64,000 nucleotides of DNA. It comes from Candidatus Methylomirabilota bacterium (GTDB lineage: Bacteria > Methylomirabilota > Methylomirabilia > Rokubacteriales > CSP1-6). The number at the start of each line of letters is the position of its first letter. Within the stretch, counting starts at the first letter, position 1. Where the stretch lies: NCBI GenBank assembly GCA_035311385.1, contig DATGCY010000129.1, positions 566 through 64,565 of the forward strand, given 5' to 3'. The notes beneath the pieces were generated by a model. It saw only the letters and a list, made by a program, of their open reading frames with translations, made no database searches and had not been told where the DNA came from. The translations under genes were made by a program, and so were the position numbers. Positions 27,912 to 48,830 of the stretch are shown here, one piece after another.

Positions 27912-28589
27912 GTGAGTGGCCCCTCCGTGGTCGGCCGCGTTGCCGAGGTCTTCTACTCGATCCAAGGCGAGGGTGTCACCGCCGGCCTTCCCGCCGTGTT
28001 CGTGCGGCTGCAGGGCTGCACCGTCGGCTGCGTCTGGTGCGACACCAAGTACTCGTGGGACGCGGCGGGGGGGCGCGCCGCCGATGTCGATGGTCTCCTC
28101 CGGGAGGCCTCGGCGTATCCGTGCCGACGCGTAGTGGTCACGGGCGGGGAGCCGCTCGAATCGCCGCTGTTCACCACTCTCACCCCCGCGCTGATTGACG
28201 CTGGCTTCGCCGTCGAGGTGGAGACGTCGGGTACCCTCGCTCCGCCCGTTGCCCTCGATCGAGCGATCCAGTGGAACGTGTCCCTCAAGCTCGCGGCCTC
28301 GGGCGTGGCCGACGCCACGCGGATCCGGCCCGCCGTCATTCGTGACTTCCTCTCGCGGGAGAGCTGGTGGAAGTTCGTGGTGACCGGCACGCGCGACGTG
28401 TCCGAGGTGCTGAGCCTGGCCGAGCGCTTCGCCCTGCCGAAGAGCCGCATCCTCCTCCAGCCGGAGGCCATCCGGCGCGAGGAGCTGATCGAGCGCGGGC
28501 CCTGGGTGGCCGAGATGTGCACGCGCCACGGCTTCCGCTTCTCTCCCCGTCTCCACATCATGCTATGGGGTCCCCGGCGGGGAGTGTAG
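27912..28589 (+). CDS. queE: 7-carboxy-7-deazaguanine synthase (radical SAM)
   Basis: [30 protein letters not shown] (CxxxCxxC-type cluster motif of QueE) ..VVTGGEP. Start is GTG 27912 or 27927. Confidence 0.8.
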
Positions 28590-29278
28590 TGGCTCCGCGC
28601 GCCGTCGTGCTGCTCTCGGGTGGCCTCGATTCCACGACCACTCTCGCCATCGCCCTCGCCGAGGGCTACGAGTGCTGCGCGCTGTCGTTCGACTATGGCC
28701 AGCGCCACGTGCGCGAGCTCGAGGCGGCGAGGCAGGTGGCCACGGCCCTCGGCGCCCGCCCGCACCTCACCCTGCGTCTCGATCTCCGCGCCATCGGCGG
28801 CTCCGCGCTCACCGCCGACATCGCCGTCCCCAAGGGACGGAACGAGGAGGCGATCGGCGAAGGCATCCCCGTCACCTACGTTCCCGCGCGCAACACCATC
28901 TTCCTCGCCCATGCCCTCGGGTGGGCCGAGGTGCAGCAGGCACAGGACATCTTCATCGGCGTCAACGCCCTCGACTACTCGGGCTATCCCGATTGCCGTC
29001 CGGAGTTCATTAAGGCCTTCGAGCGCTTGGCGAATCTCGCCACGCAGGCCGGCGTGGAAGGCAAGAGCCGCTTCCGCATCCACACCCCGCTCATCGCCCT
29101 GAGCAAGGGAGAGATCGTGGCCCGCGCCCACGAGCTCGGGGTGAACCTCGCCCTGACCTGGTCCTGCTATGCGCCCGAGGCCGACGGCCGCGCCTGCGGC
29201 CTCTGCGATTCGTGCCTCTTACGCAAGAAGGGCTTCGCCGCGGCGCGGCTCGTGGACCCCGTGCCCGTCGCGCATTGA
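28589..29278 (+). CDS. queC: 7-cyano-7-deazaguanine synthase
   Basis: GTG 28589 overlaps the QueE TAG (TAGTG) and gives (M)[16 protein letters not shown] (PP-loop) plus the C-terminal Zn-Cys cluster [10 protein letters not shown]. The track's upstream extension is a frame artefact. Confidence 0.85.
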
Positions 29279-29287
29279 CGGCCTGAC

Positions 29288-31285
29288 GTGACCGACTGGC
29301 GGAGCGTCCTTCAAGCCTTCCCCAAGGAGCGCACCTGGCTCCTGCCCGCCCTCCATGCCGTCCAGCACGAGCTGCGCTGGATTCCCGCTGCCGCGCTCGC
29401 CGAGGTCGCCGCACACCTCCGCGTGCCCGCCTCCGAGGCCTACGGGGTCGCCACGCACTATCCGGAGTTCAGGCTGACGGAGCCGCGCGCGCGGCTCATC
29501 CGTGTATGCACGGGCGTACCGTGCCGGATCCGCGGCGGAGTGGAGCTGCTCGCCTCCCTGCGCGCTGTCGCAGGGCCCGACGTGACGCTCGAGCCCTTCG
29601 ACTGCGCCTTCAACTGCTCCGTGGCGCCCGTGGTCGAAGTGGACGGCTCCTGTCATGGTCGCGTGGCGCGCGAGGACGTGAACCGCCTCCTCTCCTCGCC
29701 GGCTCCGCGGGCGTCATCCTCTCCGGAGTCGTCGCCCGCGCCGCCGGTGAAGGACCGGTCGTTCGCGGAGATCTTCCGCCGGGCGGCGGGGGCGGCGCGT
29801 CCCAGACTTCGCTTCCTGGTCGGCGTCGGCTCGTGCAGCCTGGCCGTCGGCGCGGAGGCGACCATGGAAGCGCTCACGCGCGAGGTGGCGCGCCGAGGTC
29901 TCGAAGCCGCCGTGGCCGCGGTGGGCTGCAACGGCATGTGTTGGGCCGCGCCCATGATGACGGTGGCGACGCCCGAGAGCGAGCTTCACCACCTGCCGCA
30001 CGCGACGGCCGATCGCCTCCCTGCGCTGCTCGACGCAGTAGCGGCGCGGCGGCTCGAGCCCCATCCCGGCATCACGGATGTGCTCAGGCATCAGCGCCGT
30101 GAGCTCACCGCCCGCTGCGGAGACGTGGAGCCTGACGACATCGGGGACGCGATCAGGCGCGGCTCCTATGCCACGCTGGCCGCCGCCCTCGAGGCGCGCC
30201 GGCCCGAGGCCGTCATCGAGGTGGTGAAGGCGGCGGGCCTGCGGGGGCGGGGCGGCGCCTATTTTGCCGCCGCCCTCAAGTGGGAAGGGACCCGCGGCGC
30301 CACGCGATCGCCCAAGTACTTCATCGTGAACGGCGAGGAGGGTGAGCCCGGCATCTTCAAGGATCGTCATCTCATGGAAGGCGATCCTCACCGCCTGCTC
30401 GAAGGCGCCCTCCTGGCGGCCTATGCGGCCGGCGCAGGCCACATCTATCTCTATGTTCACGGCGAAGCCCACCTCGCGGCCAAGCGAGTCGCCCGCGCCG
30501 TGGAGGAGGCACGAGCGTGGGGGCTCATCGGCCCACGTGTGCTCGAAAGCGACTTCTCCGTCGAGGTCGAGGTTCGGCGCGGGGCGGGCGGCTTCGTGCT
30601 GGGCGAGGAGACCGCGCTCATGGAATCGCTCGAGGGGCGGCGGGCCATGCCTCGCCCCAAGCCGCCCTTCCCGACGGAAGCGGGCCTCTTCGGGAAGCCC
30701 ACGGTCATCAACAACGTGGAGACGCTCTTCGCGGTGCCTCTCATCATGGATCGGGGCGCGGAGTGGTGGACCTCCCTCGGCGAGGGGCACGGGACGAAAT
30801 GCTTCGGCCTCTCCGGTCACCTGGCGCGCCCGGGCCTGGCCGAGGTCGAGATGGGAACGACGCTCCGGCATCTGATCGAGAGCATCGGGGGTGGGATGCG
30901 CTCCGGTCGCACGCTCACCGGCATGGTGCTCGGCGGGCCGTCGGGGATCATCGTGCCCCCACGCGAGCTCGACGAGCCGCTGGTGCCCGGCGGCCGCGTC
31001 AATCCGGGCACGGGGGGCCTCGTGGCCCTCGACGAGACGGCTTCTGTCCGCGACGTGATCCGCACCCTGCTCGACTTCAACACGCGCGAATCGTGCGGCA
31101 AGTGCACGCCCTGCCGCGAGGGTACGGCACGACTGCGCGACATGCTCGACGCTCCCGCCGGCGCGGACGTCGCCCGAGTCACGGAGCTCGCCGAGGTGAT
31201 ACGCCTCGCCTCCCTCTGCGGCCTCGGGCAGGCCGCGCCGCTGTCCATCCTCTCCGCCCTCCGCGACTTCCCCGGCGCCCTTTAG
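29288..31285 (+). CDS. NAD-dependent formate dehydrogenase diaphorase subunit, fused FdsG(NuoE-like)–FdsB(NuoF-like)
   Basis: 665 aa. N-terminal thioredoxin-like 2Fe-2S module (CTGVPC..FDCAFNCSVAP). C-terminal NuoF module (GRGGAYF..NGEEGEPG FMN/NAD site; C-terminal CGKCTPCREG 4Fe-4S). Confidence 0.8.
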   Translation: MTDWRSVLQAFPKERTWLLPALHAVQHELRWIPAAALAEVAAHLRVPASEAYGVATHYPEFRLTEPRARLIRVCTGVPCRIRGGVELLASLRAVAGPDVTLEPFDCAFNCSVAPVVEVDGSCHGRVAREDVNRLLSSPAPRASSSPESSPAPPVKDRSFAEIFRRAAGAARPRLRFLVGVGSCSLAVGAEATMEALTREVARRGLEAAVAAVGCNGMCWAAPMMTVATPESELHHLPHATADRLPALLDAVAARRLEPHPGITDVLRHQRRELTARCGDVEPDDIGDAIRRGSYATLAAALEARRPEAVIEVVKAAGLRGRGGAYFAAALKWEGTRGATRSPKYFIVNGEEGEPGIFKDRHLMEGDPHRLLEGALLAAYAAGAGHIYLYVHGEAHLAAKRVARAVEEARAWGLIGPRVLESDFSVEVEVRRGAGGFVLGEETALMESLEGRRAMPRPKPPFPTEAGLFGKPTVINNVETLFAVPLIMDRGAEWWTSLGEGHGTKCFGLSGHLARPGLAEVEMGTTLRHLIESIGGGMRSGRTLTGMVLGGPSGIIVPPRELDEPLVPGGRVNPGTGGLVALDETASVRDVIRTLLDFNTRESCGKCTPCREGTARLRDMLDAPAGADVARVTELAEVIRLASLCGLGQAAPLSILSALRDFPGAL

Positions 31286-33160: not shown

Positions 33161-35842
33161 ATGAGCCTCCGCGTCATCGTCGACGGCACGCCGGTCGAGG
33201 TTCCCGCGGGTGCCACGGTGCTGGACGCCGTGAACCGCCTCGGCCTCCCCCTGCCCCAGCTCTGCAAGGATCCCGACCGTGCCCCGCTCGGTGCGTGCCG
33301 CACCTGTCTCGTCCACGTGGAGGGCCAGCGTGGACTGCCCGCGGCCTGCCATCTTCCCGCGCGCGATGGCCTGGTCGTGAACACCCAGCACCCTGACGCC
33401 GTCAAGACGCGCAAGGCCGTACTCGACCTGACCTGGTCCATGCTCACGGCGAGCCCGGAACGCGACGGCTTCGGCCAGGTGGGCGTGGCCGCCCAGCATC
33501 ACGCGCTGACGGCTCCCGGGCATCCGCCCCAGCACCACTTCGCGGTGGACGAGTCGAAGAGCTTCTTCGTCCTCGACCGTGAGGCCTGCATCCTCTGCGG
33601 CCGTTGCACGACCGCCTGCGCCGATGTGCAGCACATCGGGGCCATCTCCATGATCGGACGCGGCCACGAGGCGCGGGTCGGGGTGGTGGGAGACGGGCCG
33701 ATGTCGGGGTCCATCTGCACCTCGTGCGGTCAATGCGTAGCGACCTGCCCCACGGGCGCCCTCCGCCCGAAGGAGCAGGCGATTCCCATCGTCCGCGAGG
33801 TCGAGACCACGTGTCCGTATTGCGGCGTGGGCTGCGGCATTCGGCTCCACATCAGGCAGGACGGTCGCCTCTCCGTCATGGCCGACGACGTGCCCGAGAA
33901 TCGATCGAGCGGGGGGACCCTCTGCGTCAAGGGCCGTTTCGGGACCGGCTTCGTCCACTCGCGGGACCGGATCACCTCGCCCATGGTCCGACGCGACGGC
34001 GTCTGGGTCGAGACGTCGTGGGACGAAGCGCTCGAGGCCGCCGCGGAAGGGCTGGCGCGGCACCACGGCCGATTCGGGGCCTTTGCGTCAGCCAAGGCGA
34101 CCAACGAGGACGGCTACGTCATCCAGAAGCTCGCCCGGGTAGTCATGGGCACCAACAACGTTGATCACTGCACGCGCCTCTGCCACTCGCCGTCGGTAGA
34201 GGCGATGCTCACCTCCATGGGGTCTGGCGCCACCTCGAACTCGTACCAGGACTATGAGGAGGCCGGGTGCATCATGGTGGTGGGGGCGGATGCCTCGGCT
34301 AACCATCCCGTCATCGCCATTCGGCTCCGCAAGGCGGTGAGCCGCGGAGCCCGTCTCATCGTGATCAATCCGAAGCGGATCGAGCTGTGCGACCAGGCCG
34401 ACCTCTGGATCCAGGAGCGGCCCGGGACCGACGTCGCCCTGTTCAATGCTATGGCCAGAGTGCTGCTCGACGAGGGGCTGGCTGACCTGGACTTCATTCG
34501 CTCGCGAACGGAAGGCTTCGAGGCATGGGCCGCCTCCCTCGAGCCGTACACCCTCGAGTACGCGGCGGGAGTGACCGGGGTGCCCGCCTCGAGCATCGCC
34601 CAGGCCGCCCGCTGGTATGCCCGACCAGCGTTTTCGGGGTCGTGCCTCATCTGGGGCATGGGGATCACCCAGCACATCAATGGGACGGCGAACGCGCACG
34701 CGCTGCTGAACCTCTCCCTCGCCGCCGGCCAGATGGGCTTCCCCGGCTCCGGCATTTCGCCGCTCCGCGGCCAGAACAACGTGCAGGGCTGCGGAGACGC
34801 GGGCGCCATTCCCACCAATCTCCCAGGCTACGCGGACTACTCGGCGGCGAGCCTGAGCCGCTTCGAGCGCGCCTGGGGAACGCGCCCACCGCAGAGGCCC
34901 GGGATGGTGGTCACCGAAATGAGCGAGGGCTGCCTCGACGGCTCGATCCGCGCCATATACGTGGTCGGCGAGAACCCCCTGCTTGCCGAGCCCGACCTTC
35001 ATCACGTGGAGAAGGCCTTCCGCCAGCTCGACTGCCTGGTCGTGCAGGATCTCTTCCTCAACGAGACCGGTGATCTAGCCCACGTCTTCCTGCCCGCCGC
35101 TGCCTTTGCCGAAAAGGACGGCACCTTCACCAACTCCGAGCGCCGCGTGCAGCGAGTCCGCCGCGCCATCGATCCGCCCGGTCAGGCCAAAGCCGACTGG
35201 TGGATTACCTGCGAGCTGGCCAAGCGCATCGCACGGCGGCTGGGGCGGCCCGTGCAGGGCTTCGACTTCGCGCACCCCTCGGAAATCTTCGACGAGATGG
35301 CCAGACTCTGGCCGGCCATCAATGGGCTGTCGTACGCACGGCTCGAGTCGGGGGGCATCCAGTGGCCCTGCCCCACGTCCGATCATCCAGGGACCCGCTT
35401 CCTCTATGGCGAGACCTTCCCCACGGGCAAGGCGAGGTTCGTGTCGGTCAGCCAGGGAAGTGCGGCGGCGGAGCTCCCCGACCCCGACTATCCCTTCGTG
35501 CTCAACACGGGCCGTCTCCTCTACCACTGGCACGGCGGGACGCTGACCCGTCGAGTGCAGGGGCTACTGGAGCTGGCGCCCAAGCTGCAGATCGCCGTCA
35601 ACCCCGCCGACGCGCGACGGCTCGGATTCGGCGACGGCGGCCCGGTCAGGGTCGTATCACGACGCGGGGAGCTGACCGGCTACGCGCACGTCACGGAGGC
35701 GGTACGCCCCGGAGCGCTGTTCGTCCCCTTCGTGAAGCTCGCCGACTCCGCGGCCAACTTCCTCACCAATTCCGCCCACGATCCCAGCTCCAAGATCCCC
35801 GAGTACAAGGTCTGCGCGGTGCGCCTCGAGCGCATAGCGTGA
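33161..35842 (+). CDS. formate dehydrogenase catalytic (alpha) subunit, NAD-dependent FdsA type, Cys (not Sec) at the Mo-ligand position
   Basis: 893 aa. N-terminal 2Fe-2S and 4Fe-4S Cys clusters (CRTCLVHV..; CILCGRCTTAC; CTSCGQCVATCP; CPYCGVGCG). Molybdopterin domain with VDHCTRLCHSPS. Confidence 0.9.
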   Translation: MSLRVIVDGTPVEVPAGATVLDAVNRLGLPLPQLCKDPDRAPLGACRTCLVHVEGQRGLPAACHLPARDGLVVNTQHPDAVKTRKAVLDLTWSMLTASPERDGFGQVGVAAQHHALTAPGHPPQHHFAVDESKSFFVLDREACILCGRCTTACADVQHIGAISMIGRGHEARVGVVGDGPMSGSICTSCGQCVATCPTGALRPKEQAIPIVREVETTCPYCGVGCGIRLHIRQDGRLSVMADDVPENRSSGGTLCVKGRFGTGFVHSRDRITSPMVRRDGVWVETSWDEALEAAAEGLARHHGRFGAFASAKATNEDGYVIQKLARVVMGTNNVDHCTRLCHSPSVEAMLTSMGSGATSNSYQDYEEAGCIMVVGADASANHPVIAIRLRKAVSRGARLIVINPKRIELCDQADLWIQERPGTDVALFNAMARVLLDEGLADLDFIRSRTEGFEAWAASLEPYTLEYAAGVTGVPASSIAQAARWYARPAFSGSCLIWGMGITQHINGTANAHALLNLSLAAGQMGFPGSGISPLRGQNNVQGCGDAGAIPTNLPGYADYSAASLSRFERAWGTRPPQRPGMVVTEMSEGCLDGSIRAIYVVGENPLLAEPDLHHVEKAFRQLDCLVVQDLFLNETGDLAHVFLPAAAFAEKDGTFTNSERRVQRVRRAIDPPGQAKADWWITCELAKRIARRLGRPVQGFDFAHPSEIFDEMARLWPAINGLSYARLESGGIQWPCPTSDHPGTRFLYGETFPTGKARFVSVSQGSAAAELPDPDYPFVLNTGRLLYHWHGGTLTRRVQGLLELAPKLQIAVNPADARRLGFGDGGPVRVVSRRGELTGYAHVTEAVRPGALFVPFVKLADSAANFLTNSAHDPSSKIPEYKVCAVRLERIA

Positions 35843-47975: not shown

Positions 47976-48176
47976 GAGGGCACGGAGCAGGACGGCCCCG
48001 GCGATCAGCGCCGCTCAGGGCGCGGTGGTTTCGCGGGCCTTCGGCGGCTCCTCACGGGAGCACGCGGCATCGTTCCCTCAACCGAGACGGATGCCAAAAC
48101 GCGGCAAGACGAAGCGGAGAAGGACGACCCCGCCGACGAGGACGCCGATCACGATGACCGCGCCGAGTCCGTCCAT

Positions 48177-48830
48177 CTAGGTGCTCGCGCCGTCCGCGGC
48201 CTGGAGTACCGCTTTGACGAAGTCTTGCTCGGGGATGGCGCCCTCGAACTCGACGCGATCGTTGATCACGATCTTGGGTACCGCCATCACCTGATAGCGG
48301 CGGGACAGGTCGGGGAACTCGTTGGCCTCGACGCACTCTGAGCGGATCCGGTCCGAGGCGATCGACATGTGCTGCGCCAGGCGCACGGCCCGGGGGCAGT
48401 GCGGTCAGGTGGGGGTGGCGAAGACCTTGATGGTCACGTCCTGGGCGAGTCCAGCCAGCGCGGCCTTGCTCTCGTCCTTGAGCTGCGGCTCGCCTCGCGA
48501 CACCGCGATGATGGCGTCGATCAGATTGGAGAATTCATAGCCGGCCGGCACCCCCAGGAAGCGGATACCGTAGTCCTTGCTGCCCTCCACCGCCACCGCG
48601 GGGGTGACGGAGATCCCGTAGGCGGCCGTCTCGTCGCGCTCGATGTACGGATTGAGCACCTTGACGGTGATCTTGTCGGAGAGCGCGCCCACTTCCTTGA
48701 TCAGGGCCACCACCTGCGAGTTGTTCTCCGACCCCAACTCGGAGGCGAACACGCTGAGGGTCACGGGGCCGGTCAGCTTCTCGAACTCTTTCTGAACCGC
48801 CTGCTCGTCCTGTGTCGTGAGGAATCCCAT
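48177..48830 (-). CDS. thioredoxin-fold (glutaredoxin-like, two-domain) protein with an in-frame TGA replacing the first Cys of the CxxC motif: candidate selenoprotein (UxxC) or nonsense pseudogene
   Basis: Track ORFs 48405..48830 and 48177..48386 are in the same frame. They are separated only by TGA at 48405-48407. Read through gives ..KVFATPT-[TGA]-PHCPRAVRLAQHM.., the canonical Trx/Grx active-site context (..TPTCPHCP..). Confidence 0.55.

Follow-up and report, generated by a model that had tools for sequence, protein, structure and literature searches.

A conserved in-frame UGA in a two-domain protein disulfide oxidoreductase gene of Rokubacteria is a predicted selenocysteine codon

Comparison across related genomes indicates that a minus-strand gene of a Candidatus Methylomirabilota bacterium, interrupted by an in-frame TGA at positions 48405-48407, is very probably an intact selenoprotein gene, in which the UGA is decoded as selenocysteine (Sec, U) through a bacterial selenocysteine insertion sequence (bSECIS) hairpin that lies downstream within the coding sequence. 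The gene is carried on a 64,000-nucleotide stretch of assembly GCA_035311385.1 (contig DATGCY010000129.1, forward-strand positions 566 to 64,565), referred to here as the window, and all positions are those of the window. By its sequence, the encoded protein is classified as a genuine but ordinary selenocysteine member of the catalogued PDO_seleno_TRX family of protein disulfide oxidoreductases (PDOs). A sequence-only reading of the window had proposed a selenoprotein with a UxxC motif at this site, and that proposal is upheld by the conservation of the TGA, purifying selection on the codons downstream of it, a covarying SECIS and a match to the family model TIGR02187. We infer Sec insertion itself from these standard comparative criteria.

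The gene begins with an ATG-initiated open reading frame (ORF) of 141 codons (48830..48408, minus strand). After the TGA the same frame stays open for 75 further codons up to a TAG stop at 48177-48179, so that the region 48177..48830, read through the TGA, comprises 217 codons plus the stop. The 217-residue read-through product reads ...DVTIKVFATPT-U-PHCPRAVRLAQHM... The sequence-only reading had described two same-frame minus-strand ORFs split only by the TGA, and the frame check confirms this layout; the ORF of 69 amino acids given there is the GTG-started portion of the downstream frame (48386..48177, minus strand). A scan of the window for in-frame TGA codons flanked on each side by 25 or more stop-free codons, with coding-like GC content at third codon positions, returned three sites: 48405-48407 and two ordinary gene ends that have a same-frame neighbour. 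The coding context on both sides of TGA 48405-48407 lies far beyond chance. No further candidate was found in the window, under scan criteria that could miss Sec codons near gene termini. The TGA at 29276-29278 (plus strand) was considered as a Sec candidate and rejected, being the stop codon of queC (28367-29278), with the next same-frame gene, NuoE/F-like, starting at 29288.

Scored on hidden Markov models (HMMs) with C in place of U, the read-through protein matches NCBIfam TIGR02187.2 (PDO_seleno_TRX, “protein disulfide oxidoreductase”) at 248.9 bits, above the cutoff of 185, with residues 6-211 covering model positions 2-209 of 209. Its residues 1-211 can be aligned to the PDO of Pyrococcus furiosus (1A8L; E=1.1e-43). 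Further matches are to the PDOs of P. horikoshii, Aquifex aeolicus and Aeropyrum pernix, with a weaker one to the AhpF N-terminal domain. In the alignment with 1A8L the UGA falls on the first cysteine (Cys) of the C-terminal CPYC motif, which bears out the earlier placement of the TGA at the attacking-Cys position of a CxxC motif in a two-domain thioredoxin-fold protein. Pfam recognises DUF7088 in the N-terminal half (Table 1), and Thioredoxin_3 (PF13192) at residues 133-209 with E=3.8e-21, with Glutaredoxin (PF00462) at E=8e-6. The protein thus appears to be built of two tandem thioredoxin-fold units, as is expected for a PDO of about 210-240 residues. The N-terminal unit has no CxxC motif, carrying GSENNS where distant Cys-type homologues (P0085, P0113 and others) have CELC or CQYC, and throughout the Rokubacteria/Methylomirabilota clade it is devoid of Cys. 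Redox activity is predicted for the second fold only, via U142-P-H-C145.

Two other family assignments were tried and rejected. AhpF identity is excluded by a score of 83.8 against the cutoff of 502.9 for TIGR03140, confined to the N-terminal part of that model, and by the end of the gene at residue 217. A classical glutaredoxin or thioredoxin is excluded by scores of 21.7 against 90 for GRX_bact and 74.2 against 92.75 for the MJ0307-type thioredoxin, and by the presence of two domains. PDO_seleno_TRX is itself listed as a family with a UxxC motif and one Sec (PMC13188914), and was first reported with Sec in Carboxydothermus hydrogenoformans and Symbiobacterium thermophilum (Zhang et al. 2006, PMC1794560).

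Conservation of the TGA was assessed in the DNA of relatives, taking one genome per species, which gave 80 loci, nearly all labelled Candidatus Rokubacteria, Rokuibacteriota or Methylomirabilota. One locus (L028) is cut by a contig end, leaving 79 that are informative. The homologous codon is TGA in 78 of these 79 (78 of 80 overall), the exception being AGA in L002. In all 78 the frame runs on, intact, past the TGA through P[H/Y]CPRAVRLAQHM and some 75 conserved codons up to a genuine stop, and the active-site motif across the orthologues is U-P-[H/Y]-C. At the homologous codon, Cys-type homologues have TGC or TGT. The nearest locus, L001 (JBKOVG010000218.1), is 96% identical to the window gene, and identity in the N-terminal part of the orthologues falls to 53%. 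In the codons that follow the TGA, entropy over 79 sequences is near 0 at positions 1 and 2 and about 1 bit at position 3, a pattern shared by the Pro codon at P+1, which lies between the UGA and the hairpin. Given conserved first and second positions and a variable third, the region after the TGA is, on the evidence of its sequence, translated and under purifying selection; a 3' untranslated region or a decaying pseudogene would be expected to differ.

These observations bear directly on the alternative that the TGA is a nonsense mutation, which had been raised alongside the selenoprotein proposal and in which the gene would be a pseudogene that yields a 141-residue fragment or nothing functional. 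It is true that UGA is the commonest stop codon in the genome, that the gene callers of all public sources end the protein at 141 residues, and that the window is without sel genes. However, the same TGA is kept in 78 species that have diverged to 53% protein identity, the 75 downstream codons remain in frame with the substitution pattern of a translated gene, and the adjacent hairpin, described below, is under synonymous constraint. The 78 nucleotide sequences are all distinct, so that they are not assembly copies of one sequence. The nonsense-mutation alternative is effectively refuted by this conservation, and we give it next to no credence.

Rare changes of a single base in the Sec codon occur inside the Sec clade. 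Besides AGA in L002 (L002:568-570, from a groundwater metagenome-assembled genome (MAG)), where the upper stem and loop of the SECIS are retained with two stem positions changed, there is a TTA in L083 (protein P0005), a locus on a 1.4-kb metagenome contig with an intact SECIS hairpin, and a Cys form (P0002, CPHC). AGA and TTA are codons expected to be rare at about 69% GC. The variants may be sequencing errors or recent losses. A Rokubacteria-type gene, 57-72% identical, is also found in eight loci (L006, L012, L017, L020, L021, L024, L026 and L056) from MAGs labelled Dormiibacterota, Deferrimicrobiaceae, Verrucomicrobiia, Nitrosotalea sp. (an archaeon), Binatia, Acidoferrum, Limnocylindria and Actinomycetota. 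These off-phylum labels most likely reflect binning contamination.

A protein search with the read-through sequence retrieved 3016 relatives at E <= 1e-10. In the top 120 protein clusters, a length of exactly 141 residues is found in 101 and one of 153-205 residues in a further eight; the two of those eight whose sequences were inspected (P0023 and P0065) are extended at the N-terminus and likewise stop at ...TPT. The orthologues cut by gene callers at the TGA codon are 71-99% identical. As 109 of the best 120 clusters end at the TGA codon, they are counted as Sec forms, and the possibility left by the sequence-only reading, that the closest homologues might all carry Cys, does not hold.

A further line of evidence is the messenger RNA directly 3' of the UGA, where positions 48372-48399 fold into a hairpin of -14.2 kcal/mol with a lower stem CUGC/GCAG, an internal loop CC/C, an upper stem CCGGGC/GCCUGG and an apical loop CGUGC. 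Counted from the UGA, the hairpin starts after 5 nucleotides, the upper stem after 11 and the apical loop after 17, and the upper stem-loop is 17 nucleotides long. In an alignment of 78 sequences (A1), RNAalifold run over 108 columns returned this hairpin as its sole consensus structure, matching the minimum free energy (MFE) fold of the window. By pair counting, 98.8% of cells are paired; sliding the 3' partners by 1-3 columns lowers this to 23-60%. The wobble sites of codons +4 to +9 (CCC CGG GCC GUG CGC CUG) show only 0-0.17 bit, and the other codons of invariant four-fold amino acids show 0.9-1.7 bit (for example T-3, P-2, P+1, A+10, A+16, V+42 and A+56). Just one pair (27-48) joins two wobble sites, namely the last base of the Cys codon and the last base of the Ala codon. 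It is C-G in 39 sequences, U-G in 17, U-A in 17, U-U in four and C-U in one, so that all 17 A's face U and C-A never occurs. The apical loop is identical in 77 of 78 sequences, and the sole variant (GGUAC, L049) retains the GU.

The bSECIS model asks for a loop of 3-9 nucleotides, an upper stem of 4-16 base pairs, a distance of 16-37 nucleotides from UGA to loop and an MFE of at most -7.5 kcal/mol, together with a G within the first two loop positions, usually as G[G|U] (PMC13188914). The hairpin at 48372-48399 agrees with the model on every count (5-nucleotide loop, 6-base-pair stem, G and U at loop positions 2 and 3, 17 nucleotides, -14.2 kcal/mol), so that a bacterial SECIS is indeed found downstream of the UGA, where the sequence-only reading had suggested looking for one. 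The element to which that reading had pointed, UGCGC-CUG-GCGCA, is rejected as the SECIS: its pairing is disrupted in 22 of the 78 sequences and does not covary, and neither of its first two loop positions is G. The conserved element is CUGC-CC-CCGGGC-[CGUGC]-GCCUGG-C-GCAG. At the gathering threshold Rfam gave no match anywhere in the window, as no Rfam family fits bacterial SECIS elements of this sort.

As a control, the homologous 28 nucleotides of four Cys-type homologues (TGC or TGT at the codon) were threaded onto the hairpin structure. Three of the four keep the residues CPRAV, and over all four the sequence is largely CP[RQ]AV. Their energies on the structure were -3.0, +2.5, +10.1 and +1.4 kcal/mol, and those of all 78 Sec forms ranged from -14.2 to -10.3 kcal/mol. 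Because the Cys controls, with similar residues, fail to form the hairpin, it is not a by-product of the protein sequence, and it appears, as judged from the alignments, to be evolutionarily maintained and specific to the Sec forms. A SECIS frozen at the nucleotide level across the phylum could point to an unusually sequence-specific SelB.

The hairpin and the codons around it also bear on the possibility that the locus is a split gene, in which a 141-residue N-terminal domain and a separate 69-residue C-terminal thioredoxin unit, initiated at the GTG at 48386, are made as two chains. Such a GTG is present six codons downstream of the UGA; it is, however, a Val codon within the hairpin loop, and a product started there would miss the entire U/C-P-H-C motif. 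At P+1, H/Y+2 and C+3 the first two codon positions are conserved, and the wobble position varies freely at P+1 and C+3, which argues that these residues are translated, and all full-length Cys homologues are single-chain proteins. A split gene is accordingly held to be extremely improbable.

Elsewhere UGA behaves as an ordinary stop codon. It ends 17 of the 34 genes called in the window, and the selenoprotein gene itself terminates with TGA in 61 of the 78 orthologues. UGA being a normal terminator here, recoding at 48405-48407 is site-specific. The same counts stand against a genome-wide reassignment of UGA to Trp or Gly (genetic codes 4 and 25), or leaky suppression by a near-cognate tRNA, either of which would leave the protein without Sec. 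Reassignment is known in some uncultured lineages, but the window scan, with its requirement of at least 25 codons on each side, yielded no other in-frame TGA candidate, and the UGA lines up with a catalytic Cys rather than a Trp or Gly. That the codon is read in this way is scarcely conceivable.

Several observations weigh against the selenoprotein reading. The 64-kb window contains no selA, selB or selD (protein genes were sought in the window), and Pfam finds no SelA, SelB, SelD, thioredoxin reductase or peroxiredoxin among its roughly 40 ORFs. ARAGORN, run on the window and on 60 related loci (L001-L060), detects no tRNA gene of any kind, tRNA-Sec included. The formate dehydrogenase of the window is of the Cys type, as the sequence-only reading had stated, its FdhA-like gene having CTRLCHSPS at the Sec-equivalent site. 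The 81 nucleotides starting 3 nucleotides before the UGA fold no better than shuffled sequences (z=+0.9), which is expected because the hairpin is short and lies in sequence of 69% GC. Covariation is limited to one pair, the other stem pairs being invariant, and an invariant stem supports constraint, not pairing as such. Finally, selenium incorporation at the UGA is a prediction from sequence alone.

The Sec-decoding capacity of the organism would thus rest on the conserved signal and on phylum-level literature. A search of the literature on Rokubacteria together with selenocysteine returned nothing specific. For the phylum, PMC13188914 reports, from Deng et al. 2026, a Methylomirabilota MAG with 63 predicted selenoprotein genes, and Sec-type hydrogenases have been found in Methylomirabilota (PMC13582414). 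The gene is therefore assigned to an established selenoprotein family, and its phylum had been known before to use Sec.

A further alternative accepts the recoding and changes the amino acid: the UGA would be read through SelB and the SECIS as Cys by a non-canonical tRNA(ReC)/SelC*, giving a mature protein with CPHC. PMC13582414, citing Vargas-Rodriguez et al. 2018, describes tRNA(ReC) as decoding UGA as Cys with a downstream SECIS, and tRNA(ReC) occurs in part of the Sec-using MAGs (PMC13582414). The Cys form P0002 lies in the same clade, so that Cys is evidently tolerated at the Sec site. On the other side, tRNA(ReC) is rare in genomes of the UxxC/CxxU type (about 2.3%; PMC13582414) and none was found in the window, and keeping a UGA and a SECIS in 78 species merely to insert Cys would bring no obvious gain over TGC. 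We consider insertion of Cys very unlikely, although somewhat less so than the alternatives above.

Under the selenocysteine reading, the messenger RNA would fold into the bSECIS hairpin directly 3' of the UGA, within the coding sequence, and the hairpin would recruit SelB-GTP-Sec-tRNA(Sec) to the ribosome, so that Sec is delivered at the UGA. In the mature protein the selenolate of Sec142 would attack a substrate disulfide or sulfenate, and Cys145 would resolve the mixed selenenylsulfide to leave an internal Se-S bond. This oxidised form might then be re-reduced by a thioredoxin-reductase-like flavoprotein encoded elsewhere. We infer SelB binding, the redox partners and the substrates; for a thiol/selenol-disulfide oxidoreductase activity with a thioredoxin-reductase-like partner, the gene contexts of Cys homologues offer hints. 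Re-reduction by such a flavoprotein would be consistent with the contexts of three of them. In L085 a Pyr_redox_2 (thioredoxin-reductase-like) flavoprotein gene lies directly upstream (L085:1-941), and in L081 and L084 YgaP-like_TM and AhpC-TSA/Redoxin genes lie downstream. The likeness to AhpF suggests, by analogy, an electron shuttle between a thioredoxin-reductase-like flavoprotein and a peroxiredoxin-type acceptor.

For sequence databases the consequence is one of annotation. Over 100 clusters (90% identity) stand in the public databases as proteins of 141 residues (for example P0003, P0004, P0011, P0015 and P0077), named “hypothetical protein” at NCBI and “alkyl hydroperoxide reductase subunit AhpF” at JGI. 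The JGI label is wrong, because the reductase module is missing and the TIGR03140 score is below cutoff. The 141-residue entries are a systematic mis-annotation, ended at the Sec codon, and a presumably catalytically essential Sec has thereby been overlooked in more than 100 orthologue clusters. The 78 species provide sequence evidence that soil and groundwater Rokubacteria/Methylomirabilota probably use Sec in thiol-redox proteins, in line with the very large selenoproteomes recently reported for Methylomirabilota. Our understanding of Sec decoding and of the PDO_seleno_TRX family is unchanged; what is new to the databases is the correct annotation.

The coordinates of the gene, its predicted parts and other features of the window are collected in Table 1.

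Table 1. Predicted features of the selenoprotein gene and other features of the window
Feature	Position	Strand	Evidence
Complete predicted selenoprotein gene	48177..48830	-	Frame; TIGR02187.2; alignment to 1A8L
N-terminal thioredoxin-like unit, residues 16-82	48585..48785	-	PF23357 DUF7088, E=2.8e-8
C-terminal thioredoxin/glutaredoxin-like unit, residues 133-209, bearing the redox motif	48204..48434	-	PF13192, PF00462
Putative active-site motif U142-P-H-C145 (UGA CCG CAC UGC)	48396..48407	-	Aligns with CPYC of 1A8L
Predicted Sec codon UGA	48405..48407	-	TGA invariant in 78 loci and the window
Predicted bSECIS hairpin, 28 nucleotides	48372..48399	-	MFE fold, RNAalifold, pair counts
Apical loop CGUGC, G-U at loop positions 2-3, presumed SelB contact	48383..48387	-	Identical in 77 of 78
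NAD-linked formate-dehydrogenase-type molybdopterin (alpha) subunit	33161-35842	+	Fer2_4, Fe4S4, Molybdopterin, Molydop_binding
Fused NuoE/NuoF-like diaphorase subunit, upstream of the formate dehydrogenase	29288-31285	+	
Hybrid sensor kinase, 1426 amino acids	18696-22976	-	dCache, four GAF, HisKA/HATPase, receiver

In the window, the selenoprotein gene begins 15 nucleotides past the stop codon of a gene for a thiamine pyrophosphate (TPP)-dependent enzyme. The sequence-only reading had placed the two in one operon; their adjacency in the window stands, but its conservation is partial, as a homologue of the TPP enzyme lies within 3 kb in 46 of the 80 loci (upstream where inspected). A homologue of the class-III aminotransferase is present in 75 of the 80 loci (downstream where inspected). 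Since all loci come from one phylum, the conserved neighbourhood may be due to common ancestry and not to a functional link. Elsewhere in the window, the Cys-type formate dehydrogenase is found in an organism that is read here as using Sec in another protein.

Right after the TAG of the selenoprotein gene lies a micropeptide gene (48078-48176, minus strand; MDGLGAVIVIGVLVGGVVLLRFVLPRFGIRLG). The micropeptides are 29-33 residues long and form a single hydrophobic helix with a conserved C-terminal R[WF]VLPR[FL]GI motif; no Pfam family matches them. The gene is found in the window and in 24 of 28 loci of the closer clade (L001-L027 and L067), starting 3-9 nucleotides past the stop in most loci and overlapping it by 1 nucleotide in two. 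In the more distant clade (L029-L080) the scan turned up one candidate (L042), which lacks the motif. Cys-type homologues have a YgaP-like_TM gene of 65-67 amino acids downstream in place of the micropeptide. That the Sec-containing PDO and this unannotated single-helix membrane micropeptide together make up a previously undescribed membrane-tethered selenol redox module is a tentative and rather unlikely suggestion.

Of known systems, the predicted protein is closest to the catalogued PDO_seleno_TRX proteins, with which it shares the full-length HMM match, two thioredoxin folds, a single C-terminal UxxC and one Sec; it differs in its host, which is of the Rokubacteria/Methylomirabilota and not Firmicutes or Symbiobacterium, and in its Cys-free N-terminal unit. 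The PDOs of known structure (1A8L of P. furiosus, 1J08 of P. horikoshii and 2AYT/2YWM of Aquifex aeolicus) align with it end to end (E=1e-43 to 1e-40), have the active site at the same place in the second unit and share its conserved AVPK and FEGA motifs. Unlike the protein described here, these PDOs have Cys for Sec, and at least that of P. furiosus, like the distant Cys homologues, bears a second, N-terminal CxxC. The N-terminal domain of AhpF (1HYU, 1ZYN; E about 1e-13) likewise has tandem thioredoxin folds with a redox motif only in the second, but AhpF is fused to a FAD/NAD(P)H reductase module that the protein here lacks. The hairpin, for its part, resembles the minimal SECIS of Escherichia coli fdhF and the bSECISearch consensus in its place in the coding region right after the UGA, its small G[U] loop, its spacing and its energy, whereas its sequence is unrelated to that of the fdhF element and its upper stem has no bulged U. 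The minimal fdhF SECIS of Liu et al. 1998 is said to have the same geometry, with an upper stem-loop of 17 nucleotides beginning 11 nucleotides after the UGA.

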